Shown: in pieces, positions 1-63,570 of the stretch | Layout of the letters: the number at the start of each line of letters is the position of its first letter | Numbering within the stretch: position 1 is the first letter of the stretch | DNA from: Mobula hypostoma | Lineage: Eukaryota | Assembly: GCF_963921235.1 (NCBI RefSeq) | Contig: NC_086097.1 | Location: 169,944,001 to 170,008,000 of the forward strand | DNA: 64,000 nucleotides | Reading direction: 5' to 3' | Translations under genes and position numbers: made by a program | Notes under the pieces: generated by a model | The model's database searches: none | Seen by the model: only the letters and a program-made list of their open reading frames with translations | Told to the model about the DNA's origin: nothing

Positions 1-200
1 TGCTGGAAATCCAGAGCAACACACAGAAAATGCTGGAGGAACTCAGCAGGCCAGGCAGCATCCATGGAAAAGAGTACAGTTGATGTTTCAGGCTGAGACC
101 CTTCTGTCCTGCTGAAGGGTCTCAGCACAAAACATTGACTACTCCATTCCGTAGATGCTGCCTGGCCTGCTGAGTTCCTCCAGCGTTTTGTGAGTGTTAC
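1..200. mobile_element. Penelope-derived fold-back (palindromic) mini-element, left end cut by window edge
   Basis: Inverted arms tgctggaggaactcagcaggccaggcagcatc...gagacccttc / gaagggtctc...gatgctgcctggcctgctgagttcctccagc with axis near 109; arms resemble the termini of the Penelope-like element at 29141-31189. Confidence 0.8.
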
Positions 201-3257: not shown

Positions 3258-3800
3258 GAGGATCTGAGTTATAAGGAAAGATTGAATAGGTTAGAACCTT
3301 ATTCCTAAAACATAGAACATTGAGGGGAACGCAGCAGGCCAGGCAGCATCTGATGTTCACCAGCAACTTTTATGTGTGTTGCTTGAAATTCCAGCATCTG
3401 CAGATTTCCTCGTGTTTGCGAGATTGAAGGGAGATTTGATAGAGGTATACAAAATTATGAGGGGTCTCGATAGGGTAAATGCAAGCAGGCTTTTTCCATT
3501 GAGGTTGGGTGAGACTACAACTAGTGGTCATAGGTTAAGGGTGAAAGGTAAAATGTTTAAGGGGAACATGAGGGGAAACTTCTTCACAGTGGATAGTGAG
3601 AGTGTGGAATGAGCTGCCAACTCAAGTGGTGGATGCCAGCTCGATTTCAATGATTAAGAGAAGTTTAGATGGATACATGGATGGGAGGGGTATGGAGAGC
3701 TATGGTCTGGTGCAGGTCCATGGGATTAGGCAGTTTAAATGGTTCAGCATGGACTATATGGACCGAATGGCCAGTTTGTGCTTTAGTTTTCTATGACTCC
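3258..3800 (+). mobile_element. CR1 LINE 3' fragment inserted in a minus-strand Rex1 3' UTR (about 3055-3870)
   Basis: ORFs 3376-3612 and 3596-3796: RLKGDLIEVYKIMRGLDRV...GNFFT...VWNELP; tail ttctatgactc. Confidence 0.8.
3328..3419. mobile_element. Collapsed Penelope-derived fold-back remnant inserted in CR1
   Basis: gaacgcagcaggccaggcagcatc joined to gttcaccagcaacttttatgtgtgttgcttgaaattccagcatctgcag, the two opposite Penelope termini. Confidence 0.7.
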
Positions 3801-10620: not shown

Positions 10621-11279
10621 CACTGCCTTTGAATTAGTGCAGAACCACATCCTGTGTGAATACTGCAGCCCAGCTACTGTATGTCAGAATGACCTTAGTT
10701 CTGGAGCGTGGCCAATGCAGGTTGAACCCTTCTCCTTCAGCTCCACTCCCATGGGAAGTTTGAGAAGGGCAAGTTGAAACATTGCAGTGAGAAAGATTCA
10801 GAATCTTTGTTTGACTCCTCTTTCTTCCCATTTATCCTGTAATTTAAGTGCAAACTCTGCTAATGGACTCAATTACTATTTGCAATTCTTTCTCTGGAGT
10901 GATGTCATGGAATATATCGTATATTCAAAGGAGGCACTGGCAGAATTTGGAGGAGTCAGGCGTTAAGGGGGCCAGGAAGGAAAGATGATCTGTGTTCAGC
11001 TATGATCTTACCAAAGGGTTGAGCAAGCTGAGTTGTGTGTGTCCACCCACTCCTGGTTCTTTATGTACTGATGTTCTTCCTTCTTGGAGTAAGTTATTAA
11101 CGATCCTAAATATTTTGTATGATTCTGTGTCATAGAGTCACAAAACACTTAGTCTCAACAAACATCTACTGGAGGAACTCAGTGGGTTGAGCAGCATCTG
11201 TGGTGGGAGTTGAGGGGGTGGGTGGTGGTGGTGAAAGAATTGTTGATATTTTGGTCGAACCTTTACACTAGGACTTGAC

Positions 11280-12960: not shown

Positions 12961-13789
12961 GCTGTCAAAGCCACACACCATCCTGACTTAGAAATATACG
13001 AGCCATTAAATTATAGGAGGCATAGATGAGGTAGAGAGTCAGAATCTTCACCCAGATTAGAGATGGCAAGTAATAAAGTATGTGCATTTAGGGTGAGAGG
13101 TGAAAAGTTTAAAGGTGTTCGGGGCAATTTTTTTTTACACAGTGGGTCCCTGTTATGGTCTGCTTGAAGATGTGGTGGAATTGGATATGATTGTGGTATT
13201 TTAAGAGGCTGTTAGCTAGATACATGATACCGAGGCAGAAGTTTAGTTATATTTGACATTGTGTTCAGCGCATAAATCATGGACCAAAGAGCTGGTTCCT
13301 GTGCCTTTTTCTATATCATTATTCATTCACCATCGCTGGGTCAAAATCTGGGAACTCCCTCAGGTGCAAAATACTCAGGTGTGAGTATTTTGTACATTCA
13401 CACCCGAAGGGCGGCAACAGTTCAAGAAGACAGCTCACGTCTCTCTCTCAAGGGCGTCTAGGGCTGGGCAATGAAATGTTGGTTTAGCCTGTGAAAACCT
13501 GATCCCCTGAATGAACAGAAAGAGAAATGTTTGTTTCAATGGACCATGCTGCCTGACAAACACATTCCAATGTTGAAGTTGCACCTCCAGGGCCGACCAT
13601 TGAGGGGAGCTCGTGTTCAGTTTATGGTAAAAGACTGCAGATTGGCTCTGAATTGAACACAAGATGAATGGAAGAGCTCCACTTGGTGGAGGGAAATGGC
13701 AGTTGTTGGAATCCCCGAAATATTGGTCTTGCAAGGAACGAAAGAGTCATTTTAGTCTGGTATTGTTCATGGGGAATGGTAAGGAGGGC

Positions 13790-14865
13790 GGATGTGGGGG
13801 CATTACCGGAAGTTCGAGAAATTGATGTTCATGCCATCAGGTTGGAAACTACCTAGATGGAATATAAGGTGTTGCTCCTCCAGCCTGAGTGTAGCCTCAT
13901 CATGACAGTTGAGGAGGTCATGGATTGACATATCGGAATGGGAATGGGAAGTGGAATTAAGATGGGTGGCCACTGGGAGATCCTGCTTCTTCTGGTGGAT
14001 GGAGCATAGATGCTTGGCGAAACAGTCTCCCAATCTACATTGGATCTCACCGATATATAAGAGGCCACACCAGGAGCACCAGATACAGTAGATGACCTCA
14101 ACACACACACTCACAGGTGAAGTGCCACCTCATCTGGAAAGACTGTTTGGGGCTCTGAATGGTAGTGAGGGAGGTGTAGGGCAGGGGAAGCACTTGTTCT
14201 GCTTGCAAGGATAAGTGCCAGGAGGGAGATCAGTGGGGAGGGATGAATGGACAAGGGAGTCGCGTAGGGAGTAAACCCTATGGAAAGCAGAAAGTGGGGG
14301 GGGGGAGGGAAAGATGTGCTTTGTGGTGGGATCTCGTTGGTTGGAGATGGCAGTAATTCTGGAGAATTATGTGCTGGATGCGAAGGCTACTGGGATGGTA
14401 GGTGAGGACAAGAGGAATCCTATCCCTGGTAGGGTGGTGGGAAGATGGGGTAGGAGCAGATGTGTGTGAAATGGAAGAGATGCAGATGAGGGCAGCATTG
14501 ATGATGGAGGAGGGGAAGTTCTTTATTTTGAAAAAGGAGGACATCTCCTTCGTTCTGGAATGAAAAGTCTCATCCTGAGATCAGATAGGGGCCAGGGAAC
14601 TTGAAATCATTGAAAAGATACAGAGCACATGAAGTGTCATGGATGTAGGCAGGAAGGAACTGAGCTTGGGGGGATAAAACAGAGTCGAGGTATGCAGATA
14701 TGAGTTCAGTGGAGGAAGAACAAGTTGAAACAATGGTTCTACCTGGAAACGGGTTTGAGGGTCTTGGGTAGGAGGTAGAAACAGGAGGTGCCGGATGCTG
14801 GAACTAGGAGATTGGTGGCTGTGGATGTGTTTCCATCCCCAGAGCTAATAAGGTCAGTGACAGCA
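13790..14865 (-). mobile_element. Penelope-like retroelement fragment (RT C-terminus and GIY-YIG endonuclease)
   Basis: ORF 13803-14114 VIYCIWCSWCGLLYIGEIQCRLGDCFAKH...LEEQHLIFHLGSFQPDGMN; ORF 14278-14544 RDRIPLVLTYHP. Confidence 0.9.
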
Positions 14866-21794: not shown

Positions 21795-21885
21795 ACCAGG
21801 AAATCTGCAGATGCTGGAATTTCAAGCAACACACATAAAAGTTGCTGCCTGGCCTGCTGCATTCACCAGCAACTTTTATATGTGT
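21795..21885. mobile_element. Collapsed Penelope-derived fold-back with 14-bp TSD
   Basis: TSD tgtccaacactaat at 21781-21794 and 21886-21899; content is the two opposite Penelope termini fused. Confidence 0.85.
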
Positions 21886-28975: not shown

Positions 28976-29194
28976 AGGAATTCTGGGTTGGAATTTATAA
29001 TGGCATGAATTCCTGCCATCAAATTTCGATATTCACTGTTATAGAGTCATAGTAATATAGCACTACAGCACAGAGACAGGCTCTTCAGCCCATCTTGTCC
29101 ATGCCAGCCCGATTTTCTACCTAGCCATCCACACCTCTCTCATCAAAGTTGCTGGTGAATGCAGCAGGCCAGGCAGCATCTCTAGGAAGAGGTA

Positions 29195-29232
29195 TAGTCG
29201 ACATTTCAGGCCGAGACCCTTCGTCAGGACTA
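29195..29232 (-). ncRNA. Minimal type I hammerhead ribozyme motif (left arm of Penelope element)
   Basis: Minus strand UAGUC-CUGACGA-AGGGUCUCGGCCU-GAAAUGUC-GACUA: stem I, intact core, stem II, GUC site; helix III tetramer is AUGU rather than ACGU. Confidence 0.7.
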
Positions 29233-29527
29233 ACTGAAGGAAGAGTTAGTCAGAGATTTGAAAGTGGGAGGGGGAGGGGGAGATACAAAATGATAGGAGA
29301 AGACAGGAGTGGGAGGGATGGAGCAAAGAGCTGGACAGGTGATTGGCAAAGGGGATATGAGAGGATCATGGGACAGGAGGTCCGGGGAGAAAGACGGGGG
29401 GGGGGGCGGAACCCAGAGGATGAGCAAGGGGTATAGTCAGAGGGACAGAGGGAGAAAAAGGAGAGTGAGAGAAAGAATGTGTGTATAAAAATAAATAACG
29501 GATGGGGTACGAGGGGGAGGTGGGGCA

Positions 29528-29842
29528 TTAGCGGAAGTTAGAGAAGTCGATGTTCATGCCATCGGGTTGGAGGCTACCCAGACAGAATATAAGGTGTTGT
29601 TCCTCCAACCTGAGTGTGGAGTAGAGGAGGCCGTGGATAGACATGTCAGAATGGGAATGGGATGTGGAATTAAAATGTGTGGCCACTGGGAGATCCTGCT
29701 TTCTCTGGCGGACAGAGCGTAGGTGTTCAGCAAAGCGGTCTCCCAGTCTGTGCCGGGTCTCGCCAATATATAGAAGGCCACATCGGGAGCACCGGACGCA
29801 GTATATCACCCCAGCCGACTCACAGGTGAAGTGTTGCCTCAC
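29528..29842 (-). pseudogene. GIY-YIG endonuclease domain of Penelope-like ORF (C-terminal fragment)
   Basis: VIYCVRCSRCGLLYIGETRHRLGDRFAEH...LEEQHLIFCLGSLQPDGMN; upstream RT part is frameshifted and 5'-truncated. Confidence 0.9.
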
Positions 29843-31055
29843 CTGGAAGGACTGTTTGGGGCCCTGAATGGTGGTAAGGGAGGAAGTGTAAGGGCATGTG
29901 TAGCACTTGTTCCGCTTACAAGGATAAGTGCCAGGAGGGAGATCAGTGGGGAGGGATGGGGGGGATGAATGGACAAGAGAGTCGCGTAGGGAGTGATCCC
30001 TGCGGAAAGCGGGGGGGGGGAGAGGGAAAGATGTGCTTAGTGGTGGGATCCCGTTGGAGGTGGCGGAAGTTACGGAGAATAATATGTTGGACCTGGAGGC
30101 TGGTGGGGTGGTAGGTGAGGACCAGGGGAACCCTATTCCTAGTGGGGTGGCGGGAGGATGGAGTGAGAGCAGATGTACGTGAAATGGGGGAGATGCGTTT
30201 GAGAGCAGAGTTGATGGGTGGAGGAAGGGAAGTCCCTTTCTTTAAAAAAGGAGGACATCTCCCTCATCCTGGAATGAAAAGCCTCATCCTGAGAGCAGAT
30301 GCGGCAGAGACGGAGGAACTGCAAGAAGGGGATGGCATTTTTGCAAGAGACAGGGTGAGAAGAGGAATAGTCCAGATAGCTGTGAGAGTCAGTAGGCTTA
30401 TAGTAGACATAAGCTGTCTCCAGAGACAGAGACAGAAAGATCTAGAAAGGGGAGGGAGGTGTTGGAAATGGACCAGGTAAACTTGAGGGCAGGGTGAAAG
30501 TTGGAGGCAAAGTTAATAAAGTCAATGAGCTCAGCATGCGTGCAGGAAGCAAAATCTCCCAGAGAATCTTCCTGCACAGAGAAAGCAGGATCTCCCAGTG
30601 GCCACACATTTTAATTCCACATCCCATTCCCATTCTGACATGTCTATTCACGGCCTCCTCTACTGTAAAGATGAAGCCACACTCAGGTTGGAGGAACAAC
30701 ACCTTATATTCCGTCTGGGTAGCCTCCAACCTGATGGCATGAACATCGACTTCTCTAACTTCCGCTAATGCCCCACCTCCCCCTCGTACCCCATCCGTTA
30801 TTTATTTTTATACACACATTCTTTCTCTCACTCTCCTTTTTCTCCCTCTGTCCCTCTGACTATACCCCTTGCCCATCCTCTGGGTTCTGCCCCCTCTTGT
30901 CTTTCTCCCCGGACCTCCTGTCCCATGATCCTCTCATATCCCCTTTGCCAATCACCTGTCCAGCTCTTGGCTCCATACCTCTCCCTCCTGTCTTCTCCTA
31001 TCATTTTGGATCTCCCCCTCCCACTTTCAAATCTCTTACTAACTCTTCCTTCAGT

Positions 31056-31093
31056 TAGTCTTGATGAAGGGTCTCGGCCTGAAACGTCGACTG
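31056..31093 (+). ncRNA. Minimal type I hammerhead ribozyme motif, core-mutated (right arm)
   Basis: UAGUC-UUGAUGA-AGGGUCUCGGCCU-GAAACGUC-GACUG; first core C replaced by U. Confidence 0.6.
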
Positions 31094-31200
31094 TACCTCT
31101 TCCTAGAGATGTTGCCTGGCCTGCTGCGTTCACCAGCAACTTTGATGTGCGTTGCTTGAATTTCCAGCATCTGCAGAATTCCTGTTGTTCACACCTCTCT

Positions 31201-32280
31201 TATTCTTGTTTCTATCCAAACTTCTCTTAAATGTTACAATTTACTACACTTACCACTTCCACTGGCAGCTCAATCCACTCTCACACTAGCCCGAGTGAAA
31301 AAGTTTCCCTTCAGATTCCAGTTAAATATTTCATCTTTCAGCCTGATTCAATGAACTCTAGTTCTAGTCTTACCCAACCTGAGGAGAAAAAGCCTGCATA
31401 CATTCACACTATCTATACCACACCTAATTTGCATAACTTTATAGGATCTTCCTTCCTTCTCCTGTGCTCCAGGGAATGAAGTCTTAACCTGTTCAACCAA
31501 TCCCTGTAACTCAGGTCCACAAGTCCCGGCAACATTAGTGTAAATTTTCTCTGCACTCCTTCAAGCTTATTGATATTTTTTTCCTGTAGGTAAGTGACTA
31601 GAACTGCACACAATACTCGACAATTGGCCTTGCCAACATCTTGATGTCTTGAAGAGTCTCGTTCCAAAGTGTCAACTGTTTATTCATTTACATGGATACT
31701 GCCTGACCATTTTATGTGTGTTGTTCTGGATTTCCAGCAACTGCAGAATTTCTTGTGCTTACCAATATCTTATACAATTTCAACATAACATCCCACTCAA
31801 TGCCCTGATTTATGAAGGCCAATGTGCCAAAAGCTCACTTTACCATCTCAGTGGCATTCTCATAGAATTATGGGTGCTTGGAAATAGGTACCGAGGGGAT
31901 GTCAGGGGTAAGTTTTTCACACAGAGAGTGGTGGGTGTGTGGAATGCACTGCCAGCGGTGGCGGTGGAAGTGGATACAATAGGGTCTTTTAACAGCCTCT
32001 TAGATAGGTACATGGAGTTTAGAAAAATAGAGGGCTATGCGGTAGGGTAATTCCAGGCAGTTTCTACAGTAGGTTAGCGTCCTGTAGATTTCTGTGTTCT
32101 ATGTTCTCAGGTCTCTTTGCTCTACCGCACACCCTAATGCCCTTTCATTCACTCTGTATGTCCTATCGTGGTTTGTCCTCTTAAAGTGCGACACTTCACA
32201 TTCACCTGCATTAAATTCCATCTGCCATTTTGCAGCCCATTTCCCCAGCTGGTTCAGACAATTTTACAAGCTTTGATAGG
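31201..32280. mobile_element. Cluster of CR1 fragments (minus-strand copy with a plus-strand 3' end at about 31870-32107)
   Basis: ORF 31413-31667 KLEGVQRKFTLMLPGL..LSYRDWLNRL; ORF 31649-32050 C-terminal KFFTQRVVGVWNALP. Confidence 0.75.
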
Positions 32281-32559
32281 AAAACCAAGCTTTATTAGTT
32301 GTCATATATTGCCTATACTGGTTGCTGTGGTCATACTGGGAATGGTGATTATGGTTTCCAACAAATTATAGAAATGTTTCCTCTTCTTGCTATCACATTA
32401 TCAGTTAAAATGAACTTTCAGCTTTGGTTGTCGAAGTACCAATTCAGCAAATGCTTTGGCTCATTCTTATGAAGGATCTCTGACCTAACATTTTTACTAT
32501 TTTTCTTTCTCCATAGATGCCACTTGACTTTCTGAGTGAACCAAGTGTGCATCAGAGGA

Positions 32560-34242: not shown

Positions 34243-34551
34243 CTGGAGCAGAGACAAATGTATTGGTTAAAGAATACAAACGATGTGAAGAACCATTATA
34301 TCCCCTCAAGGGCACACACGTTGAGCACCCAAATATATCTGTAGTCAGTGTCACACTACGATGTAATGAATTCAGGATGTAATGAGTCTATTGTTTCTTG
34401 CCCTTGCAGATGACATTCACCTTATTGATTCTTTTTCTCATTTACTAATACAAAATTAACAGAATGTGATGAATAGCATTTAAATACATTCTGAAGAAAG
34501 ATACAAGGCGTACCTTTACAATAAGAAAGAATTCAACATTTCCTAAGGATA

Positions 34552-34773
34552 AACAACAGGAATTCTGCAGATGCTGGAAATTCAAGCAACACACATCAAA
34601 GTTGCTGGTGAACGCAGCAGGCCAAGCAGCATCTGTAGGAAGAGGTGCAGTCGGCGTTTCAGACCGAGACCCTTCGACAGTCCTGACGAAGGGTCTTGGC
34701 CTGAAACGTCGACTGCACCTCTTCCTACAGATGCTGCTTGGCCTGCTGCGTTCACCAGCAACTTTGATGTGTG
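34552..34773. mobile_element. Young Penelope-derived fold-back mini-element with 13-bp TSD
   Basis: TSD tttcctaaggata at 34539-34551 and 34774-34786; near-perfect inverted arms of about 90 bp; termini match 29141-31189. Confidence 0.92.
34678..34715 (+). ncRNA. Minimal type I hammerhead ribozyme motif with intact consensus
   Basis: CAGUC-CUGACGA-AGGGUCUUGGCCU-GAA-ACGU-C-GACUG: perfect 5-bp stem I, core boxes, stem II, palindromic ACGU, GUC cleavage triplet ending at 34710. Confidence 0.8.
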
Positions 34774-35064
34774 TTTCCTAAGGATACATCCTTTAACTTG
34801 GATTGAACCTTTTGTGCCAACTGATTTGTTTCCAAGTATTGGCTTGCTTCATTTTTAAATTATGTTACTTAAAAAACAATTATAAATAAGTGAGACTTCT
34901 AAAAGGGAGTAGGAGCGGAGGAAACAGAGTGTGTGGTTGCAAAATCAGTGACAGTGACAGGCAGGTTGAGAAAATGTTTAATAAACGACACAATTCTGAA
35001 CTTTATCAATAAAAGAATGGGGTATAAAAGTAGGGAACTTATGCTAAAACTTAATAAAACTGAG

Positions 35065-35620
35065 AGACAAGAGACTACAGAGCAATGTGAGATCTGCTGG
35101 AAGATAATTATGGATTAAGCAGCATCTGAGGGGGGAATGGAATTGTCAACAGTTCAGGTAGAAAGCCTGCATCAGGATTGAGAATGGAAAGAGAGGACGG
35201 CTAGTAGAAAGAGGAGAGGGTGAGTGATGAGACAGTAGTCCAAGCTGCTCGGTGGGCGCAGGAGGGTGATAGATGACAAGTAAGTTGTGCGAGGTAGGGG
35301 AGCAGAGTGGGGAAGAGCTGGGAGACGGAGGCAGGTGGCCGAAAGCTGGAGGCAAACTAAGAGAAGAAACAGAGGCAGATGAATTCATCGTGGGAGCGGG
35401 AAAGGTGAAGGATGGAGATAGCTGATAGATGGAGAAAAGCAGGAATACAAAAAGGCTACCTGCATTGGAACCTGATAAATGAAAGAGGTGATATTGGAAA
35501 CCATTAGGGGGGAGGCGAATGACAGATGGAACCAGGGCCAGATAGGGGTGGTGTCCATGAGTGAACTATGTGTATTGTGGGTGACTATAATCAGATGGGG
35601 AGGGGGTGAAAAGTGATGGT
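35065..35620 (-). mobile_element. Older Penelope-like terminal/3' UTR fragment
   Basis: Degenerate terminal arm (gcagcatctg...tcaggtagaaagcctgcatcaggat) followed by a purine-rich tract like 29240-29520. Confidence 0.5.
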
Positions 35621-36160: not shown

Positions 36161-39100
36161 ATGATTAAATCCTGTAATTTTTCATCACCTTTACTCAGCG
36201 CATTGTAAATTCTGAAGTAAACACCATGACCCTATGACTGCACTGAAAGTCCTCAAGCCCACAAGAACGATCTGGACATACACTGAAAGGAGCTGGGATA
36301 TTTATATTCAGTTAGTTAAATAATCTCAATTTTAAAAATTAGTAGCGGTGATATTGACCTTGAAACTACACTACTGTGATAGTGTAAAATCACATCTGGC
36401 TCACTAATGTCCTTTAGTACAAAGGATATTTACCATCTCCATCTGGTCTGGCCTATATATACGTAAAACCTTAGGCCACATTTGGAACATGTGCAATTCT
36501 GCATTATAGGAAGGGTGTGGAGGATTTGAAAAGGATGCCAAACTGATTCACTGGTGTCCTGATTCAGCATTTCAACCCAAAATGTTAACAATTCCTTTCT
36601 TCTCACAGATGCTACATCGTTCACTGAGATTGTTCGATGTTTTATGTTCGCCCTGCTTAGAGAATATGAGCTTTAAGCAGAGTATAGACAAATTTGGATT
36701 GTTTACTCTGGCGCTTCAGATATAGAGGATATGATAGGAGTTTATAAAATTCTGAGGGGCATAGATACAGTCAGTCTTTTTCCCAGTGAGAAAATATGTT
36801 TGCAAGATGGTGCTGGTGAGCCATGGCAAAGTTCTGCGGGCTACAGAGGACATTTCTAAATATACTCTCACTGCAATCTGCACCCTGTAATTTCCCTTTA
36901 AGCATCATCATCTTCATCATTACATGTCATGTCATATGGCAAAGGTGATCATGGTGACCAAGTTTGTTCCTGGCAACCCTAAGCAATGTACTTTTAAGTC
37001 AACACACACAAAGTGCTGGAGGACCTCAGCAGGCTGGGCAGCATCTATGGAAAAGAACAAACAGTCAATATTTTGGGCTGAGACCCTTCCTCAGGACAGA
37101 TTTTCTCATGTTTGTACTTTTAAATTAACTTAATGATCTACAGGTTTCACAGTCTTCTGAAGCTCTTGGTAGACCAAGGAGGTACGTCACTTTTAAACGG
37201 ATGGAAGTTCATTGCCATGGCTGGAAGTTAGGCAGGAGTGGGGTGACTCCAGACTCATGGTAATAATGTTGCCTCTTACCTGTCCTCCAAAGTAGCCCAG
37301 TGTCACTTTCCTTGAAGAAAATTAAGAAAGGGTGATAGCAAAAGGAAAGTACCGACATCCTGTGAATGATTAAAGGACCCAGAGATATTCAGACGCAACT
37401 CACTGTCCTATGGTAGATCCATTTATGGTAAAATCCACAGAGAATTGAAACACTTTATCACCTAGTGAATCCTTCCAGTGGCTGAACAATCTTTTCACTT
37501 TTGCTATAGTTAGTAGTTTTCACTGGGATCCTTGATGGTCAGTCCAATGCATTGATATTGAAGGGTGTATTCCTGGCTGTTTGGATTGATCATCTATAGC
37601 AAGTGAAAGGAAATTTATTGCATTTAATGAAAGAACTTTAAAACGAAACTATTTATAATGCTATCTGGCCATGACAAGAACAGGTCGTAAAATGGCTTGG
37701 GCGCCAATGCTTCTGAAAACATCCCTGACCTAACAATAAGTGACTATTAAGACTTTTAAATCATTATACTATGTCAGTGATTCATGACCCAGATGGATAG
37801 GAAGGCAAGTGGGTAGTACTGTTGTGTAACAGGTTTATAGACTAGGGCAATTACAGCATGCAACTGGAAAATCAAATGGCTCTTTTGTTAACTAAAGGAG
37901 AGGACATTCTATGCATCATCTGTAATTAATATAATGTAAATCAAATATATTACCAGCAGGCTAGCATTACAATCAATGAATTTGTAAACATTTTTATTTT
38001 AGCATTTACTAATCAAAACTAACCTAATCAAAGTGCAAAGTGTATCACGTTCAGATTTGTTTTCTTAACCTTCTGTTTTAGCAGAAGCATTATCTGCTTA
38101 TCAGAATGATGCCAGGCAGGTGGAAAAGGTCTCTTGGCCCCTACCTGATGAAAGATGGTAGATTCTTCCAATCCTAATCATGATCTTAAATTTGTTCAAT
38201 TAACATCTGTGTAGCCGATTCTACTTCAGCGGAAATAATCCCATTAATTTTGTTCAGAGTAGCTGCAGTATCGTTCACAAAATGCACTGTAACAACTCAC
38301 TGAGGCTTCTATGATAGCACTTCTGATGATCCCTACAACCCTGACTTTCAAGCTGGATGGTCAATCAATGTACCCATGCTCCCTGATAGAGAACAAAAGC
38401 AAATAACCTCACAGCTCCCATCCCAAGTAGCATCTTGTTGCACAGCCCTATGATACAAATAAATTGGTGAATTGGTAATTTGGTTTATTATTGTCAGATG
38501 TACCAAGGTACAGTGAAAAATTTAGCTTTGCATGCTGTTCATACAGATCATTTCATCACATCAAGTAGAGATACTATCAATCCCAATGACAATTAGGGCA
38601 AGCCACTCCTTTAAATAAATCTGATGTGAATGTCAAAGCAGGTTTTATATAAATTGTGAGGATATGCAGTTAAACAAGGTAGAACAAATTAAATGTTTAT
38701 GTCCAAGGGAGTTTTGACTTTGAATGCTTCATAAAACTCATCTGCGTTCATTTCTATTCTGGGTAGATAACAGCTGGAACATATCTGGAGGGTTTAATTG
38801 GAATCAGTTTAGCAGCAGCTAACAAGAAGATTTCCTTTTGCTCTGTTTAAGATGAACAGAAAATTCCAAAGAAACCGTTTATTTGAGGCTCCGTCATTGC
38901 AATAGTTCCTTTTGAATTGATAATAAATTAAGAGAATGTTTTCAGTGAAGGGCATCAGGATTATTATGGCGAAAGGGTATTGTGATGAAGTGCATTCCCA
39001 ATGTAGCTGCTTAGTGTCGAGAACTGCGTTTGGTGGTTCTTGTATCTTAGACCATAGGCCATAGCAGTAGACTTAGGCCATTCGGCCCGTCGAGTCTGCT

Positions 39101-42572: not shown

Positions 42573-43768
42573 CAGGGGTCCCCAACCTTTTTTGCACTGC
42601 GGACCGGTTTCATATTGACAATATTCTTGCAGACCGGCCGACTGGGGGCGGTGGGGGGGGGGAGGGAGGGTTGCCAACGGACAAGAGTAGCAATCAACTA
42701 CGCTGTTTACCCCGACACTACAATGACCATGAAGCCTTGCGCGAGCACCAGTGCGCATGCGTGATTTGCGCATGTGTGTACGTGTTACAAATCATTTTTG
42801 GCGATTCTGTTGGGGGGGGCTATTAATCACGACGGGAATATCGGTGATAAGTGACTAATACACTCAATTTCGTTTCTAAAAGGGTTGATCTAACAAATTT
42901 AATATTAAACACACAGCACACATTTTCCTTGCAGGAATATAGCGATAAGTCAATTATCAGGGGAGGACAGGGGAGCTTGAAGTGTTGAACGAACTTCCAG
43001 TAGAAGTGGTAGAGGCAGGTTTGATATTATCATTTAAAAGAAAAATCAGATAGGTGTATGAACAGGAAAGGAATGAAGGGTTATGGGCTGAGTGCAGGTC
43101 GGTGGGACTAGGTGAGAGTAGCGTTCGGCACGGACTAGAAGGGCAGAGATGGCCTGTTTTCGTGCTGTAATTGTTATATAAGTAAGTCAATAGCATCATA
43201 ACATTTTAAGTAACGTCTGGATATTAAACACACGGCACATATTTTCCCCGTATGAATATATAAAATCATTGCAACACACCAATATCGCTGAATCAGTGGG
43301 AGCCCTGGGCTTGTTTCCCTGCAACGAGACGGTCCCATTCGAGGGGTGACGGGAGACAGCGATACTCGAAGGGGGTTCCTTATGTCCAGTCTATTCCGCA
43401 ATTTAGTTTTCGTTGCATTCATTGCAGAGATATGTTGGAAATGGAAGCAACGTTTTCAGTGCTTTCCTGGCTATCTCAGGATATTTAGTCTTGACTTTGA
43501 TCCAGAATGCCGGCAGAGATGTTATGTCAGACATACTTTTTAGCCCGCCGTCATTTGCAAGCTCAAGGAGTTGATCTTCTTCCCGCGCTGACATGGATGA
43601 CGCGCGGGTAATGACTTTGCTTGCATTCAAGCTCAACAGTGGGCATGACAAGGAATGAGGAAAGGTGCAGCTGACTCCTATCGCCAAATCACATTGTTTC
43701 CTCGCTGCCCGGTAGCACATGCTCTGCGGCCCGGTACCGGTCCGCGGCCCGGTGGTTGGGGACCGCTG
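42573..43768 (-). mobile_element. hAT (Charlie/Buster-like) deletion derivative
   Basis: TIRs caggggtccccaacc / ggttggggaccgctg; C-terminal dimerisation-domain remnant EDQLLELANDGGLK...FWIKVKTKYPEIARKALKTLLPFPTYLC; 8-bp flanks ctctatcg / tcctattg match only 5 of 8. Confidence 0.88.
42955..43182 (+). mobile_element. CR1 3' end embedded within the hAT element
   Basis: aacgaacttccagtagaagtggtagaggcagg...ggcctgttttcgtgctgtaattgttatat; flanked by taagtcaat at 42946-42954 and 43183-43191. Confidence 0.7.
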
Positions 43769-46294
43769 TCCTATTGTACCACTGTAATTTGCTTTACTCC
43801 ACTGAAGTACTGCTACTTCGGACTTCACTTTCTCCCTATCAAATTTCAAGTTGAATTTAGTCATATTATGATCACTGTCTCCTAAGGGTTCTTTTACCTT
43901 AAGCTCCCTAACCACCTCCGGTTCATTACATAGCACCCAATCCAATATAGTTGACCCTCTCATAGGCTCAATGACAAACTGCTCTAAAAAGACGTCTTGT
44001 AGGCATTCAACAAACTCACTCTCTTGAGATCCATTACCAACCTGATTTTCCCCAATCGACCTGCATGTTAAAAACTCCCGAGACGATAATAACATTGCTC
44101 TTTTGATAAGCATTTTCTATTTCTCCGTGTAATCTGTGGTCCACATCCCAGTTACTGTTGGGAGGCCTGTATATAACTGTAATGATCTGATCTGTGTTCA
44201 ACAGAAATCTTTCATTGTATTTTGGTATATGTTATAATAATTAACCAATACTAATACATGTGACATTAATTTACCAATTTACCAATTTATCAGTGGCTCT
44301 TCACCACTTTCTGAAGGGCCCTTGGGTATGGCCTTCAAATACTGAAGCTGATAGTAATGTCCAGCACCCAAGACTGAATAAAAATAAATTACATTCTATC
44401 AAGGTATATAAAACGAAAGCACACCTTTTTCTAATTCTCTGTTTCCTCAGCGGTTGAGTTGGACTCGGCAAGACTTTCTAAAGATTGTGCCTGGAACATC
44501 TGTCATTACCTGGATAAGTTGCTCACGCTTTCGCCTTCTCAATGATAGCCTTAGGGCTCAACATCTGTGTCTCCTGAGAAGAGCTTGGGGAAGGCTGCAT
44601 CCAACAAAATAGACTATCGTGTGATATTGTGAGTGGAGAGTGTCCGCAGGTTGACATAAGGGCTTGTGAACCCTAATGAGAATATTATGTTTACAAAATG
44701 CTATGCTCTTACATTTATAGAAAGCCAGCATGCTCTTCTCTCCAGCAGGGAAGGTGTAGTAAGTCCAACTTCAGGACAAGGAGGGAATTAAGAAAACTAC
44801 CTCTGCTCTTTATACATTGTAGAAATACCATCATTTTTCTCTAAAGTTGGCTGAGTTTACAATATTTTTGTTCCTGTGTTTTTGGGTTTTGAAGGTTAAT
44901 TGTGACAGGCATAGGAGAAAGACAAACATTCTCTTGTTTGAATACCAGAAATCTAAAGGACACAGGAATGCACAATGAGAGCCCCTGCAGGCTAAAAAGC
45001 CTTGTAACTACAATTAAGTATTTTTAGTTTCTGTTATTAACATGCTACTATTTAAGTATGGTTCAGTGCCTGATCTTGAAAAGTGGAGGAAAAACACACA
45101 ATTTCTTTTGAGATGTATTGTGTAACATAATTTGCATTTGTAACAAATGCAATGTTCCCGAGACGATGGCACTGAATTAAACCCCTCTGGCTGAAACACA
45201 CAGAGGCAGTCAGAAAACGTCTTGTTCCTCTTTACTTCTTGTTTGGATAGGTAAATATTATTCTGCCCAAAACCATTCAAAATGTTAATACTTGAAGTGG
45301 TAGTTGGGCCATGGACTAATTAAGGTTGCATATTTTGTAAACCATATGCAGAAAGAATAATGGACAAGGCAGCATTAACTATTGTATTGAAAATGGGAAT
45401 TTTGTCTTCTTGGTTTTAGTTCTCTAGGCAAGTAATACAGTTAAATTCTGAAGTTAATTGGTTGAGGGGAGTGGAGTTATTTTGTGGGCTGGGTGCAAAA
45501 TTGGTCCTAAGTGTGCAATTTTTGGGCTGCAAAATGAGATCAATGCAGATGAATATCAGATCACAATGTCCTCTATCCAACCAATGGCTGGGATGAGGAC
45601 CCAGCCAAAAACTTTGATGTCTCTAATGCTCACCTCAAGAGTGAAAATATTTTTGCTGCAGCAATCCAATTTCCTAATTTTAATGAGCTCACCCTGAGAT
45701 AACTTTTTTTCTGGAGAAAAGCCTGTTTAGCTTTTTCTGTCATGAACCTCTGAATTTGCAAATAAAGTCTCATGTCTGATTTTGGCCCCTTGTATGGAAT
45801 TGGTCAAAATGAAATGGATCTTGGGCCTGAGACTCATAATTTTACTTCCACTGTGCTGTACCATGGTCATTGGGGGAGCTCAATTGACTGGCAAGGAGGA
45901 GGCTGGTTGACTATCTTAAATAATTTCTTGATGCTGCTGTATAAAACTTAGTCTAGGCCATACGTGGAGTATTGTAGTACATTTCAGATTGCTACATTAC
46001 AGAAAGGATGTGGATGTTTTGGAGAGGGTGCAGAAGAGCTTCACAAGGATGCTGCCTAGATTAGTTAAAAGGAAAGGTTGGATAAACTTGTGCTTCTTTC
46101 TCTGGAGCAATGGAGGAGTCCAGACCATTAGTAACACTCGCTAACTCTCTTCACACTACTTCACAGATCAGTGAACAAAGAACATGGAAAATGGAAAAGT
46201 GCAGCTCAGACACAGGCCCTTCAGTCCACAATGTCGATGCTGACCAGGGTGTCAATTTGAGCTGCACATCTGTCCGCACACGGTCTAGAATCTA

Positions 46295-46420
46295 GACACT
46301 GGATGAAGAGTCTTGACCCAAAACATCAACTGTCCATTTCCCTCCACAGATGCTGGCTGGCCCATTGAGTTTTTCCAGCAGTCTTTTCCCTAGATTACAG
46401 TGTTTGCAGTCTACTGTCTC
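46295..46420 (+). mobile_element. Degenerate Penelope terminal arm
   Basis: gatgaagagtcttgacccaaaacatcaactgtcc...agatgctggctggcccattgagtttttccagca. Confidence 0.6.
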
Positions 46421-47790: not shown

Positions 47791-49079
47791 AGATGTGTTT
47801 GCATGCACCAACAGAATTTAAAGCTATTTCTTGAACATTTTGTAGTGTCATCAATTGTCGTCCTTTGTGCTGGAATAGCCAACGATTGAGGATTATTCTT
47901 AGACATTTCTGCAGATGCTGTCCAACTTTTAACCATCAAAAGCCCCACCTCACTTTATGTTAATATTTTATGGATTGGTTTGGCTTGTTTTAATACTATT
48001 ATCAGATGTGTCCAGACACAGTGGAGGGTAGTTGTTTCTGTGCCATCCAGACAGAGTTTTTCATACATAAACACACAGAGTTAGTACAAAATGGAAAAGC
48101 AGAATGAAAAATACTGCTGCAATACCCTGATTTAGACCATGCTTTATTGTATTAAAGCAGTTATGCCGTTGGGTATTTTAATTTCTGCAGATTTTCTTGA
48201 AATGCAATGTGTTCCTTTAATTACATTGTACAATTGAGTATTTCTTTTTTACTGTTTAAAATAATATTTCAGTTGATTAAGTTAAGCTTGTTGTAATAGC
48301 TGATAGGATTTGTCTTGTTAACACTTTGTCCAATAAAATGCCCCAGAACATTCTAGAGGGATTGGGGGTAGCAATTTTCTGGAGCGAGTGCAGGAGTTTT
48401 GAGGAAGAAAAAGGAGAAGGAGAAAGAAGGAAAGAATGGAGACAGATGACAAACATGAGTAAAGAACATAGTGAAACTCTCACAGAAACCACCTGGAAGG
48501 ACAAATACTACTGTTGGAAAATTCTTATGCCGTCAATGGTCTCATGAAGAATGTACAGACAACTTCTAATTAGCTAATTATCACATGACCTTGAAGAATG
48601 TTCAGAATGTTTGATGCCTTGTCCTCAGACTTGGCATGTATATTTATTTATGTTTTGCTTGGACTGTGTTTTCAGGCAGAATTGTTCAATACTGTGAGTA
48701 AAGGAGGTGAAACAAACTGGATTAATGATGCACCAATGAGCTCCAACAATTATGTGCACACTGTAGGCTAATTAACGTATGTGTTATAGTTTAAAATACT
48801 TTGTCAATATAATTTCAATCTAAGTTTATATTTGCATGAGCGAAATTATTGCTTCCTGGCAAATAGTAAGTTTGCATGGGTGTGACAGTGTTCATACAAG
48901 TGGTAACTTCATTTTCCCTTAAAGGAACATTCAAACTTTAATGTTTTGTGTTTACCTGAATCATATTTACTCTAGACGTGTTTATTTTTTGGAAATGGTC
49001 TTTTCATTGTGATTCCTCATGTCTCGTAGAGTTATGTTACTGTTAATTTATATTTACGGTACCAGCTAACTCATTCAAG

Positions 49080-49510
49080 CCTACAATGAGAGGGTTACAC
49101 TACATGTACAGAGAAAGTACAGTGCTGGTAGGCAGCTCAGGTACCAGGGTCATGATGCGCTTGATTGGGAGGTAAGAGTTAAGTGTATTAGAGGTTTGTT
49201 CAAGAATCTTGTAACAACAGGACTTAAGCCTGGAGGTACATGTCCTCATATCTTCTACCCAACAGGAAGGGGCAGAAATTAGGGTGGGAGGGGTGCCTGA
49301 TTATATTGGCTGATCTCCTGAGGCAGCAGGAAGTATAGATGGAGTCAATGGTGAGAAGGCTGGTTTGCATGATGGACTAGGCTGCATTCCCAACTTTGCA
49401 ATTCCTTGTGGTCTTGGCAGAGCAGTTGCCATACCAAGCTATGATGCATCTGGGTAGCATGTTTTCTAAGATGCATCTGTAAAAATTAGAGAGAGTCTGC
49501 AGAAATGCCC
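49080..49510 (-). mobile_element. Rex1/Babar-type LINE 3' fragment
   Basis: ORF 49377-49580 NFYRCILENMLPRCIIAWYGNCSA. Confidence 0.75.
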
Positions 49511-50134
49511 ACGAGCAATCTTCAATCGCTGGATATTCCAGCACAAAAGAGGAGAGTTGACAACACAATGAAATGTTCAAGAAATTGCTTTAAATTATGT
49601 AACGAGCTCTAGGCAAACAAACTGGACCTGGGATCTTCAATCATTACAGTGCTGGTTTGTTCTAAGAAGGCAACAGTTTGGAGTTCCAATTTGAAGTATA
49701 ATTTGCCAATCATGTGTCTGTAATTTTCTATGCAAACTGCACTGTGGATGAAACCAGATAAACTACTCCCTCATATTACATCTTCAAGGTCAGAGTTTTG
49801 CAACTGGATTATAAAGCAAATGAAATGAAAGAAATCCAAACCAACAGAGCACCCAATGGGGTAACGCAGAGTTTCACAGCCAGTAATTATCACTGGATTT
49901 GCTGAATATACGACCCTTTATTAAACTGTTGCTGAGCTACAGTATCTAATATAGTGTCACCAGGATTCAATACAACCATTTCTCAATTTGCTTTGTCAAA
50001 TGGAATATGGTAAATTGCATGATAATTATAAATTAACATTATCGTCACTTCAGTTAAGTGACTTTACCCAAAATGTTGTAGATCTTAATCAGCTGAATTA
50101 AAAAGCCCTTTTTTCATATTCTGTGCCCAGGGAT

Positions 50135-54133: not shown

Positions 54134-54359
54134 TACAAGAGACACTGCAGATGCTGGAAATCCAGACCAACACACAAGATGGTCCAGGAACTCATCAGGT
54201 CAGGCAGCGTCTACAGAGGGAAATGAACAGTTGACATTTCAGGCTGAGATGCTTCATCATTAATCCTGATGAAGTGTCTTGGCCCAAACCTCAACTGTTC
54301 ACTTTCCTCCATAGATGTTGCCTGAGCCATTGAATTCCTCCATCATTTTTTGTGTGTTT
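54134..54359. mobile_element. Penelope-derived fold-back mini-element (older)
   Basis: Inverted arms around cttcatca-ttaatcc-tgatgaag (axis near 54263); long left tail ctgcagatgctggaaatccag. Confidence 0.75.
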
Positions 54360-58450: not shown

Positions 58451-60580
58451 TAGAAACATAGAAACACAGAAAATAGGTGCAGGAGTAGGCCATTCGGCCC
58501 TTCGAGCCTGCACCGCCATTTATTATGATCATGGCTGATCATCCAACTCAGAACCCCGCCCCAGCCTTCCCTCCATACCCCCTGACCCCCGTAGCCACAA
58601 GGGCCATATCTAACTCCCTCTTAAATATAGCCAATGAACTGGCCTCAACTGTTTCCTGTGGCAGAGAATTCCACAGATTCACCACTCTCTGTGTGAAGAA
58701 GTTTTTCCTAACCTCGGTCCTAAAAGGCTTCCCCTCTATCCTCAAACTGTGGCCCCTCATTTTGGACTTCCCCAACATCGGGAACAATCTTCCTGCATCT
58801 AGCCTGTCCAATCCCTTTAGGATCTTATACGTTTCAATCAGATCCCCCCTCAATCTTCTAAATTCCAACGAGTACAAGCCCAGTTCATCCAGTCTTTCTT
58901 CATATGAAAGTCCTACCATCCCAGGAATCAATCTGGTGAACCTTCTTTGTACTCCCTGTATGGCAAGGATGTCTTTCCTCAGATTAGGGGACCAAAACTG
59001 CACACAATACTCCAGGTGTGGTCTCACCAAGGCCTTGTACAACTGCAGTAGTACCTCCCTGCTCCTGTACTCGAATCCTCTCGCTATAAATGCCAGCATA
59101 CCATTCACCTTTTTCACCGCCTGCTGTACCTGCATGCCCACTTTCAATGACTGGTGTATAATGACACCCAGGTCTCGTTGCACCTCCCCTCTTCCTAATC
59201 GGCCACCATTCAGATAATAATCTGTTTTCCTATTTTTGCCACCAAAGTGGATAACTTCACATTTATCCACATTAAATTGCATCTGCCATGAATTTGCCCA
59301 CTCACCCAACCTATCCAAGTCACCCTGCATCCTCTTAGCATCCTCCTCACAGCTAACACTGCCACCCAGCTTCGTGTAATCCGCAAACTTGGAGATGCTG
59401 CATTTAATTCCCTCATCCAAGTCATTAATATATATTGTAAACAACTGGGGTCCCAGCACTGAGCCTTGCGGTACCCCACTAGTCACCGCCTGCCATTCTG
59501 AAAAGGTCCCGTTTATTCCCACTCTTTGCTTCCTGTCTGCTAACCAATTCTCCACCCACACCAATACCTTACCCCCAATACCGTGTGCTTTAAGTTTGCA
59601 CACTAATCTCCTGTGTGGGACCTTGTCAAAAGTCTTCTGAAAATCCAAATATACCACATCCACTGGTTCTCCCCTATCCACTCTACTAGTTACATCCTCA
59701 AAAAATTCCATGAGATTCGTCAGACATGATTTTCCTTTCACAAATCCATGCTGACTTTGTCTGATGATTTCACCGCTTTCCAAATGTGCTGTTATCACAT
59801 CTTTGATAACTGACTCCAGCAGTTTCCCCACCACCGACGTTAGGCTAACCGGTCTATAATTCCCCGGTTTCTCTCTCCCTCCTTTTTTAAAAAGTGGAGT
59901 TACATTAGCCACCCTCCAATCCTCAGGAACTAGTCCAGAATCTAACGAGTTTTGAAAAATTATCACTAATGCATCCACTATTTCTTGGGCTACTTCCTTA
60001 AGCACTCTAGGATGCAGACCATCTGGCCCTGGGGATTTATCTGCCTTCAATCCCTTCAATTTACCTAACACCACTTCCCTACTAACATGTATTTCGCTCA
60101 GTTCCTCCATCTCACTGGACCCTCTGTCCCCTACTATTTCTGGAAGATTATTTATGTCCTCCTTAGTGAAGACAGAACCAAAGTAATTATTCAATTGGTC
60201 TGCCATGTCCTTGCTCCCCATAATCAATTCACCTGTTTCTGTCTGCAGGGGACCTACATTTGTCTTTACCAGTCTTTTCCTTTTTACGTGTCTATAAAAG
60301 CTTTTACAGTCCGTTTTTATGTTCCCTGCCAGTTTTCTCTCATAATCTTTTTTCCCCTTCCTAATTAAGCCCTTTGTCCTCCTCTGCTGAACTCTGAATT
60401 TCTCCCAGTCCTCAGGTGAGCCACTTTCTCTGGCTAATTTGTATGCTTCTTCTTTAGAATTGATACTATCCCTAATTTCCCTTGTCAGCCACGGGTGCAC
60501 TACCTTCCTTGATTTATTCTTTTGCCAAACTGGGATGAACATTTGTTGTAGTTCATCCATGCAACCTTTAAATGCTTGCC
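58451..60580 (-). mobile_element. Young 5'-truncated CR1 LINE
   Basis: Uninterrupted ORF2 fragment, 3' UTR and (tttctatg)n-type tail at 58451-58472. Confidence 0.95.
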
Positions 60581-60584
60581 ACAT
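58548..60584 (-). pseudogene. CR1 ORF2 reverse transcriptase fragment (678 aa, no endonuclease, FADD changed to FADY)
   Basis: PGPDG, NYRPVSLTS, QHGF, LDFQKTFDKV, SGVPQGSVLGP, KFADYTKLGG, RDLGV, LVRPHLEYC motifs. Confidence 0.93.
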
Positions 60585-60609
60585 TAAATTCCAAATCTGC
60601 CGCTTTCTT

Positions 60610-61480
60610 GAGAATACTCATCTACTGAGCTTCCACAACTGGGAGTAATGTACTTGTAGAGATTGAGGACTAGTTAATGGACAGAAAACAGAGAGTAGGG
60701 CTAAAGGTTAATTTTTGTGTTGGGAATCGTGACTAGTAGGGTGCTGCAGAGACAATCACGTGTTCACAATCTAACTCAATGAGGGGATTAAGTGTAATAT
60801 ATTCAAGTTTGTGGATAATACAGGGCCAGATGGCAGTATAGACTGACAAGAAGATGTAGAGACACTTTAGGAGAATATGGACAGGTTATATGAAAGAGCA
60901 AAAATTGAATATATTGTGAAAAAATATGAGGTAATCCAGTTTGGTAGAAAAATGAGGAATATTGAGTTTTTTAAATGATAAAACATTGAGGGGGTGTTAG
61001 CATTTAGTGGAAGCTAGGCGATCTTGTCATCATCATCATCAGGTACCGTGCCCAGTTTGAGCTTTGACTGCCATGGCCCACATGCTGCTGTTTCGGGTCA
61101 AGTGGATCAATTCATTGGTGTTCATTTCCAGTTCTCTGGAAATCTTGTACATAAGTTATTAATAGTTAATGTACAAGTAAAGAGAGTAATTTAGAAGGGC
61201 TGTTTTGCAAGAGGATTTAATACAAAAGTAGAGATAATTTGCTGTAATTATATAGAGTTCTGGCGAGTCAGCTCCTGAACTATGGATTTGGTCTCTGCTC
61301 TCCCCACCTAAGGAAGTATATACATGCAACAGACAGAATGCTGTGAATATTGGCCACATTGATTCATACCATAGTGGATCTGCAGTGTGATTAAGGGGAC
61401 TGGTCATATATTCTGAGTTCAGGAAACTGAGAGGAGCCCTTATTGAAATGTATCCAATTAGAAGATTTTGTTGACACAGT
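60610..61480 (+). mobile_element. Degraded CR1 RT fragment
   Basis: acagaaaacagagagtagggcta...gtgactagtagggtgctgcag...attcaagtttgtggataatac. Confidence 0.65.
61028..61141 (-). mobile_element. Short LINE 3' end (RTE-like) with (gat)n tail and 7-bp TSD
   Basis: atcttgt at 61021-61027 and 61142-61148; catcatcatcatc at the tail end. Confidence 0.6.
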
Positions 61481-61973: not shown

Positions 61974-63570
61974 TAGGTTTCCCCCGCCATCTGAAGGTAG
62001 AGCGTTCCTATGAAATGGTTTGTAAGCCGAAAATTCGTAAAGCGAAGAAGCAATTACCATTTATTTATATGGGGAAAATTTGTGAGTGTTCGCAGACCCA
62101 AAAATAACCTACCAAATCATGCCAAATAACACATAAAACCTAAAATAACAGTAACATATAGTAAAAGCAGGAATGATATGATAAATACACAGCCTATATA
62201 AAGTAGAAATACTTTTCCACAATCATTACTGCACTGTTCTCCTTAGTGAAAATCTCACGCAAGCGCCGTCGGCAGAAAATCTCACGCAATCGCTGTTGGC
62301 AAAAACACGGCGCAAGCGCTCTCCAGTAACCTTTAAGCTATGAAGCTGCCAAATCATACCAAATAACACATAAAAATACACAGCCTATATAAAGTAGAAA
62401 TAATGTACGTACAGTGTAGTATCACTTACTGGAGTTGGTTCAGCGCCGAGCACACTGATGATGGTGTGTTAGACTGAGTCGTTGGAGTTTGGGTGGTGCA
62501 GTTGCTCCCACCCTCCAGGCCGCTGACCGATACATTGCCGCGAAGCATGCAGGAGTGCAGCGGTAGCCGGGAGGCACACAGCACATCTTTAAGAAAAAAG
62601 CCGAAATAAACATGCTAATTAATTAGGTGACGACCGGCATGTATTTGTCGGTCCAGATCAGAGACCATTTCCAATTGTGTCGTCTCTGATCTGGGCCGAC
62701 ATTTACGTGTTGGGCAGCACCTAATTAATTGGCTTGTTTACTTCGGCTTTTTTCTTAAAGATGTGCTGGGTGCCTCCCGGCTACCGCAGCATTCTCCGCG
62801 AATCGTGGGGTTTGTGGGACGCTGGGGTGTCATCTTGTCGTCTGTTTCCATTAGAGCAGGCAGCTCATCTTCTCCTATGACTGCCCACCTCAATGTCGAA
62901 GGTCGACGTTCGTCCTCTGCTGTGGCTGTTGTGGAAGGCTTGCTTGACTGCTGAGCCTTGCGCATTTTTCTATCATACAGTTCTTTGTAAAGACTCAAAC
63001 CATCCTGCAAATATCCCCTAAACCTAAGTACCCTTTCAAAATTAAATTCGTACTTTATCATTGCAGCGAAAATCTCATGCAGTTGCTTCACGTTCAGTTC
63101 CTGGACGACTTCACTTTCGGTCCGTTCGCTACTGCATTCGGTTTCAATTGTTATCCTTTCCTCTTCCAATTGCATCAGTTCTTCATCTATCAGTTCTTGG
63201 TCATGGGATGCCAAAACCTCTTCAACATCATGTTCGTCAGCTTCCACAAGCCCAACTCACTTTGTCCTTACTTCGTTCACCACGATCGAAACGCTTAATT
63301 ATGTCTAGTTTTACGCTAAGTGTAACACTCTTACGAGCTCTTTTAGGCTTTTCCAATACCTTAGAACTCACCTTGCAAATGGCTGCTGACAGGCACGTGT
63401 TTAAGCAATGCCGTTCCGAAGCCGGGGGAGAGCAGCTGATTTTCCCCATGCGCTGCTTTTTCTTCGTAACAGTGAAAACACGTTCTGAAAGCGAAAACAG
63501 GGTACTAATGTAGGTCTTTCGTAATAGTGAGGTTTCGTAAAGCGAACGTTCGAAAAGTGGGGGTCACCTG
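61974..63570 (-). mobile_element. Tigger/pogo-type DNA transposon, internal deletion derivative lacking the DDE domain
   Basis: TA-flanked TIRs taggtttcccccgc / gtgggggtcacctg; ORF 63237-63449 KRARKSVTLSVKLDIIKRFDRGE (pipsqueak/CENP-B-type N-terminus); ORF 62738-63247 acidic Tigger C-terminus DVEEVLASHDQELIDEELMQL. Confidence 0.9.
62560..62787. repeat. Long inverted repeat (arms about 105 bp) inside the Tigger element
   Basis: gcggtagccgggaggcac...ccagatcagagac / gtctctgatctgg...gtgcctcccggctaccgc with a loop of about 16 nt. Confidence 0.9.

Follow-up and report, generated by a model that had tools for sequence, protein, structure and literature searches.

Insertions of endonuclease-positive PLEs are described as carrying an inverted, 5'-truncated copy of the element and a tail of 30–40 nt on one side (PMC8557442; PMC3846280, for Pen2a; PMC2377424), and an inverted truncated copy with a one-sided tail also appears as standard for PLEs in PMC8969392. 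How PLEs form tandem and inverted insertions is stated to be open in PMC8557442. A Cys-rich linker between the RT and the endonuclease marks the Neptune PLEs (PMC3846280, PMC8557442). For Poseidon PAc, cleavage and extension of both target strands are reported, two RT start sites delimit the tail, and hammerhead cleavage is not needed for insertion (PMC11167929). In Schistosoma, PLE remnants contain paired minimal hammerheads on opposite strands, 100–700 bp apart (PMC4209133).

The inverted copy and the one-sided tail found at the ray locus described here are this published PLE anatomy. Less ordinary are an apparent hot spot at the 5' edge of the hammerhead and a possible rule for the order of the two arms. 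Neither a stop at the hammerhead edge nor these ray repeats were found in the literature searched; Repbase, Dfam and supplements may describe the palindromes.

Fold-back insertions in the 64-kb window

The window is the whole stretch of DNA that was analysed (64 kb). A search with an arm profile gives 19 matches in the window and none on the reversed window. These matches correspond to 13 insertions with a 3' end (Table 1), of which seven are two-armed (A, B, D, E, G, I and K) and six are single arms (C, F, H, J, L and M). The sample in the earlier note was partial and omitted fold-backs B and D, the lopsided copy I and the six single arms. Positions within the element are counted from C3 of the CUGANGA box, which is set to 0.

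Table 1. Positions of the PLE insertions and their parts in the window
Feature	Positions	Strand	Remarks
Copy A, fold-back, older subtype	1–200		axis near 105; tailed arm cut by window edge
Copy B, fold-back without hammerhead	3329–3420		arm ends +46, +67; TSD 12 bp with 2 mismatches
Copy C, old single arm to hammerhead edge	11156–11277	-	TSD not found; boundary by eye
Copy D, fold-back without hammerhead	21795–21885		arm ends +73, ~+50; exact 14-bp TSD
Copy E, TSD	29130–29140 and 31190–31200		exact 11 bp
Copy E, whole insertion	29141–31189	-	5'-truncated, frameshifted PLE, putatively Neptune type
Copy E, body	29141–30551	-	RT C-terminal part, Cys linker, GIY-YIG
Copy E, 8-bp template hairpin	29228–29251	-	ends at -1 of hammerhead; mirrored at 31037–31060 with 7 bp
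Copy E, inverted 3' copy with tail	~30577–31189	+	613 nt
Copy F, single tailed arm from hammerhead edge	31643–31757	+	TSD 14 bp with 2 mismatches
Copy L, old single arm from hammerhead edge	32463–32544	+	TSD not found
Copy G, left TSD	34539–34551	+	13 bp; exact match to 34774–34786
Copy G, PLE tail, one arm only	34552–34589	-	38 nt; unpaired in fold; matches copy E 31148–31189
Copy G, antisense arm (PLE 3' end)	34590–34680	-	stops at C3 of damaged hammerhead (A6, U16.1 changed)
Copy G, axis	34679–34682	+	2-nt microhomology 34679–34680 and 2-nt centre; 5' strand of hammerhead stem I
Copy G, minimal type I hammerhead motif	34679–34714	+	intact; predicted cleavage after 34710
Copy G, sense arm, tail-less	34683–34773	+	
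Copy G, right TSD	34774–34786	+	13 bp; exact match to 34539–34551
Copy H, old	35115–35331	-	~150 nt further into pyrimidine-rich UTR; counter-example
Copy M, old single arm from hammerhead edge	36555–36647	+	TSD not found
Copy I, lopsided	36998–37112	-	tail-less arm to -3, then last 15 nt of inverted tail; exact 11-bp TSD
Copy J, old single arm from hammerhead edge	46297–46410	+	TSD not found
Copy K, fold-back, oldest of the three palindromes	54134–54359		axis 54260–54265; TSD not found

The coding copy E is itself a fold-back, with a 1.4-kb body, an inverted 3' copy and a tail on the inverted arm only. Its arms span 570 bp and are 96% alike, and its centre is a 25-nt filler copied in part from adjoining sequence. 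The coding frames on the minus strand are broken, and the truncation precedes the RT catalytic motif. This frame shares 92% identity with a predicted 422-aa Mobula hypostoma protein (C-terminal half of the RT and GIY-YIG), and the four protein matches are all from Mobula or Hypanus, which points to a ray as the probable host. A Cys-rich linker, C-x4-C-x2-C, lies directly before GIY-YIG in the frame at 29528–30241; the GIY-YIG match (Pfam E 0.0013, 19.4 bits) is under the cut-off of 22.6. Judged by linker and GIY-YIG in the sequence, copy E is classed as a putative endonuclease-positive PLE of Neptune type. The partial tandem (direct pLTR), a feature not needed in every copy, is absent among the 13 window insertions. 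Another ORF fragment of Neptune type lies at 13773–14800; its identity to copy E is 79%, and no hammerhead end was detected for it.

The three palindromes on which the earlier note was built (A, G and K) do consist of opposite Penelope 3' termini. They are head-to-head Neptune-type ends whose arms are 96% (G), 85% (A) and 74% (K) identical to one another. The window contains two sequence subtypes with 64–79% arm identity between them, and A and K belong to the second, so that the three palindromes are of different subtypes, as had been proposed. The tail is likewise confined to one arm; it measures about 35–42 nt in D, E, G and K.

In copy G, segments 34588–34680 and 34683–34775 are 96% complementary around a 2-nt centre. 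Its RNA fold is computed at -185.6 kcal/mol (z -27), a value that no shuffle out of 200 matched, and leaves the 38-nt 5' tail unpaired; the hammerhead would be buried in this long hairpin if the insertion were transcribed whole. None of 200 random window pairs scores as high as its 13-bp TSD. Both arms are 90–94% identical to the 3' end of copy E, and three bases common to both differ from both arms of copy E, which indicates that the two arms of copy G come from one template. Self-copying of a single cDNA was considered for this copy and rejected: the centre is what a folded-back tail-less strand would give, and such a strand could not contribute the tail.

TSDs above chance are present in six of 11 insertions (B, D, E, F, G and I; A and H were left out). 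They measure 11, 11, 12, 13, 14 and 14 bp, and their sequences differ among the six insertions. No TSD was found for copy K (null fraction 0.5). The resemblance in TSD length that had been drawn between copy G and the coding element holds for that pair, both being exact (13 and 11 bp); a TSD is shown for one of the three palindromes, copy A being cut by the window edge.

The hammerhead core is present in the arm that begins at 34683 and fits the minimal type I form as given in PMC4209133; the features used were the core, an extra base after A9 and a palindromic 15.2–16.2. In an alignment of six hammerhead sequences, 93.6% of the cells are paired and there are two compensatory pairs, both from the single outgroup L119. 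An Rfam search gives no hammerhead family at E up to 1, and only sub-threshold miRNA hairpins. The outgroup is a Neptune-like element with a minimal hammerhead (L119, 43–1300) on a contig of an Endozoicomonas MAG; the contig is probably animal host DNA in the bin.

Several other features lie in the window. A palindrome at 62553–62794 has 113-nt arms (87%) and a 16-nt spacer, and the frames beside it (62738–63563) look like a Tigger/pogo transposase. Inverted 121-nt arms at 47811–47931 and 49480–49600 are 80% alike and 1548 nt apart. A 689-aa open frame at 58548–60617, with several older copies elsewhere in the window, resembles a CR1-type LINE RT. The frame at 43403–44116 ends in a stretch similar to the C-terminus of a hAT transposase, which would be an insertion within a LINE fragment.

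Clustering of arm ends at the hammerhead edge

The 5' edge of the hammerhead is the stop in nine of the 13 insertions, namely three palindromes (A, G and K), the lopsided copy I and five single arms. In the remaining copies, B and D fold 45–75 nt further 3' and lack the hammerhead, and E and H run further 5'. The arm ends of copy G are at 0/+2 and -2/-4, those of copy A at +5 and -3, and those of copy K at +1 and at -4 to -6 as judged by eye (local alignment gives -10). The axes of all three palindromes are thus near the CUGANGA box and stem I, with arm ends about 6 nt or less from C3 apart from the local alignment of K, in agreement with the earlier note. The wider idea that the axis sits at the hammerhead is borne out as a cluster among all insertions; it fails as a rule for two-armed copies, of which four in seven are at the edge and B, D and E fold elsewhere.

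The clustering of 9/13 has a scan-test p of 1e-4 or less under four null models. When two-armed copies only are counted (4/7), p is 0.003–0.08, with 0.07–0.08 under exponential truncation. Four of the nine edge copies (C, J, L and M) are old and TSD-less and had their limits set by eye, and the edge is where the search profile began, which is a source of ascertainment. The 60 nt upstream of these four copies have a pyrimidine fraction of 0.38–0.52 versus 0.77–0.82 in UTR-bearing arms, which argues against pure ascertainment. Since single arms also end at the edge, the edge is a stop site and not a property of palindromes. The clustering holds within the window without being universal.

Public contigs of four runs, comprising three DNA-type runs from three organisms and run X10, were aligned to 29708–31207. 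Run X1, which may be the source sample, has 339,335 contig pieces that match the copy E region, so the PLE family is very abundant. All four runs have position 31057, which is -4 and the first base of stem I, among the few loose-end places listed. For the three DNA-type runs, the loose ends there have a median of 93–121 nt and an agreement of 0.38–0.40. For comparison, those at the true 3' end in X10 have 212–255 nt and 0.44–0.51, and those at a subfamily switch at 31094 have 28–33 nt and 0.65–0.67. The loose ends at 31057 resemble the true 3' end more than the subfamily switch. Their consensus is a pyrimidine tract of another subfamily, and part of the signal is therefore subfamily divergence. 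With this mixed signal, they lend modest support to the edge stop.

At 31058 the summed depth shows a step, which is 2.1–2.6-fold for the three DNA-type runs and reaches 5-fold in X10; this step was not used because it is not copy number and a second subfamily joins there. None of the 15 joints listed, out of 2589, is a fold-back at the hammerhead. A joint from 31093 to 31057 in X1, with a depth of 129, connects the 3' strand of stem I to its 5' strand; a tandem hammerhead core or an exchange of stem-I strands would account for it, and several loci may be involved. The joints of X5 were set aside since they contain GATC insertions, likely from proximity ligation. Scans with exact patterns found nothing in metagenome, viral or bacterial contigs. 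A looser pattern gave 118 chance matches in metagenomes, and none of 119 loci fits the arm profile. A protein scan gave no relatives in viral contigs and one in genome contigs.

Proposed two-cDNA joining and alternative readings

With moderate confidence, the mini-elements are read as dead-on-arrival insertions of an abundant Neptune-type PLE, made anew each time by the joining of two cDNAs at the hammerhead edge. The GIY-YIG endonuclease would nick both target strands 11–14 bp apart, a spacing taken from the TSDs. Each target 3' end would then prime the RT near the 3' end of the element RNA, as the in vitro results for PAc suggest. An outer RT start would give the tailed arm, and a start about 35–42 nt further in would give the tail-less arm. 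The two antisense cDNAs would grow toward each other and be united by microhomology end joining. Junction overlaps are 2–7 nt, and copy E has templated filler. Repair of the polymerase-theta type may play a role in the joining. The outcome would be an almost perfect palindrome in which the hammerheads are unable to fold.

Two features of the template may explain why both cDNAs tend to end 2–6 nt 5' of C3. One is the template hairpin, which ends there: an RT travelling in the 5' direction would run into its 8-bp stem, whose 3' strand reaches to -1. Among the 30-nt cDNA windows along the 567-nt arm (mean -1.2 kcal/mol, sd 1.3), those of lowest energy, at -5.6 kcal/mol, have their centres from -15 to -9, and the 86-nt region around the hairpin folds no better than shuffles (z -1.3). 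This evidence covers the young subtype only. The other is a tract of about 100 nt of pure pyrimidine beyond the edge, which may make the edge the final site at which two antisense cDNAs are able to pair. In the bin from -20 to 0 there are 13 near-symmetric microhomologies, against zero or one per bin from -120 to -20. The joins in B and D are also at short self-complementary words of the template. Ribozyme cleavage was considered as the cause of the boundary and rejected. The predicted cut, at +27 and not -4, lies about 24 nt downstream of the edge, and cleavage itself therefore does not fix the boundary.

In none of the seven two-armed insertions does the tailed arm reach further 5' than the tail-less one (1/128 by hand, post hoc), the difference in arm length in A, G and K being only a few bases. 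An outer RT moving behind the inner one along one RNA would be expected to produce this order, since the tailed cDNA would trail the tail-less one and never overtake it.

The earlier note left two options, a self-propagating non-autonomous family or recurrent RT fold-back or deletion at the ribozyme. Recurrent formation at a stop or annealing hot spot is favoured, and the family finds no support in the window. The junctions of the three palindromes all differ: G has a 2-nt overlap, and the left arm ends at +1 in K and +5 in A. Some of these differences could be later decay in the old copies. Two exonised copies, P0005 and P0006, read 10–20 nt past the edge into the UTR and have the G-diagnostic residues at two of three sites each (at protein level, at two loci), from which it follows that the G haplotype exists in longer elements. 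No variants private to the mini form were found, G's bases being matched in P0005 and P0006. The differing junctions, the G haplotype in longer copies and the single arm F together favour recurrent formation.

The antisense tailed arm at 34552–34680 appears as an exon in gene models P0005, P0006, P0007, P0009 and P0011, and P0007 seems to represent the same gene as P0005. One of these models is named as a Tim8A isoform of Mobula hypostoma; the exons may be real exonisation or a prediction artefact. A search for the junction through such spurious proteins gave these five exonised antisense arms and no junction (seven matches, two unrelated).

The self-propagating family is one of several other readings, and we regard it as unlikely. 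Here, a palindromic copy would be transcribed, the PLE protein would prime both cDNAs on the tailed end, and the cDNAs would cross the axis and anneal over their full length, which would rebuild the same junction and one tail. The geometry would be self-consistent, and a density of three palindromes per 64 kb suits such a family, as does the observation that the tail-less arms of A and I end on the same base and continue with the same three bases. The three window junctions differ, however, the G-diagnostic residues are present in UTR-bearing copies, and the match between A and I is equally explained by the tail's own sequence. The joint from 31093 to 31057 stands out in X1 (depth 129 versus 6–59 for the eight X1 pieces listed), but may be tandem or inverted. 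A hairpin of -186 kcal/mol would also probably mask the protein-binding site and attract RNA silencing. If true, this reading would mean that MITE look-alikes spread by reverse transcription in rays and sharks. Mobilisation of a MITE by a DNA transposase has practically no credence, since size and palindromic shape are all that speak for it. The arms match a retroelement 3' end (90–94% identity to that of copy E), the tail makes the terminal inverted repeats asymmetric, and the TSDs are variable at 11–14 bp with no fixed 2- or 8-bp length among them. The variable long TSDs refute the MITE reading, unless a family with a fixed TSD exists genome-wide, and the earlier attribution to retroelement products is sustained.

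Other readings place the edge in the template or in later events. The RNA might have its 5' end at about -4, through an internal start or processing, so that the cDNAs run off and a SINE-like hammerhead-to-tail unit results. The tail-less arms of edge copies end within about 2 nt of -4, and single arms share the boundary, F with a TSD. We nonetheless hold a short template to be quite unlikely: the start site in D. virilis is described as preceding the intron rather than lying at the hammerhead (PMC2377424, PMC4209133), and E, H and five of five exonised copies (a biased set) extend further. Loss of the centre of long E-like fold-backs by hairpin or cruciform deletion after insertion, with a fragile purine/pyrimidine UTR, is very improbable. 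Copy E does hold 570-bp arms that are 96% alike and copy I resembles a deleted palindrome, but such collapse fails to explain the single arm F, whose TSD is called intact, or the arm order in 7/7 copies. Still less credible is that splicing sets the edge, with a 3' splice site before stem I and, on the antisense arm, a cryptic donor to which the hammerhead would be joined. A branch-point-like heptamer is present there, as are a pyrimidine tract and, at -8 to -3, two AGs (31037–31058, plus strand; 29230–29251, minus strand), and the intron of D. virilis Penelope is reported to end at the 5' end of helix I (PMC4209133). Copy G lacks a GT donor after the end of the left arm, the single arms have no upstream exon in common, one AG simply belongs to stem I, and an AG is missing at this place from the distant Neptune in L119. 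The acceptor-like bases could serve a PLE intron, as their counterpart does in D. virilis, or could be no more than hairpin and stem I.

The joining of two cDNAs at the edge remains the preferred reading. A model with two primers and one RNA makes two concrete predictions, a fixed stop at the edge and the order of the arms, and both are checkable on a very large set of copies and in the PAc in vitro system. Such copies risk annotation as MITEs or miRNA hairpins; otherwise they are ordinary PLE debris.

Comparison with known systems

In L1 twin priming, two target-primed cDNAs are joined by microhomology, which leads to an inversion. The L1 cDNAs cover different parts of the RNA, whereas both ray arms copy the same 3' end. 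The ray copies share with non-LTR retrozymes that they are short, non-coding, hammerhead-bearing and PLE-derived (bioRxiv 10.64898/2026.07.22.740005). As described there, however, the retrozymes are direct tandem repeats that can form dimeric ribozymes, and the ray copies are inverted and mask the ribozyme. Direct tandem hammerhead units were not found in the window, where all paired motifs are inverted.

The two RT starts proposed for the ray copies have a parallel in Anolis Poseidon PAc, for which both strands are nicked and extended in vitro. PAc belongs to a different clade, and second-strand joining and 5' truncation are outside that study as presented (PMC11167929). The ray insertions resemble the PLE insertions described in the publications cited at the outset in their head-to-head 3' ends, the tail on one arm, the microhomology at the junction and the hammerhead in the terminal repeat. 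Their TSDs of 11–14 bp compare with about 8–14 bp in those accounts. They differ in that the ray arms are often about 95–130 nt long, with no ORF between them and one stop site; the published insertions are described with variable lengths, and a hot spot is absent from those descriptions. Like the Schistosoma pairs, the ray palindromes have two opposite minimal type I motifs, which in Schistosoma are ascribed to truncated PLEs; unlike those pairs, the ray motifs abut (0–8 nt) or one of them is clipped (PMC4209133).
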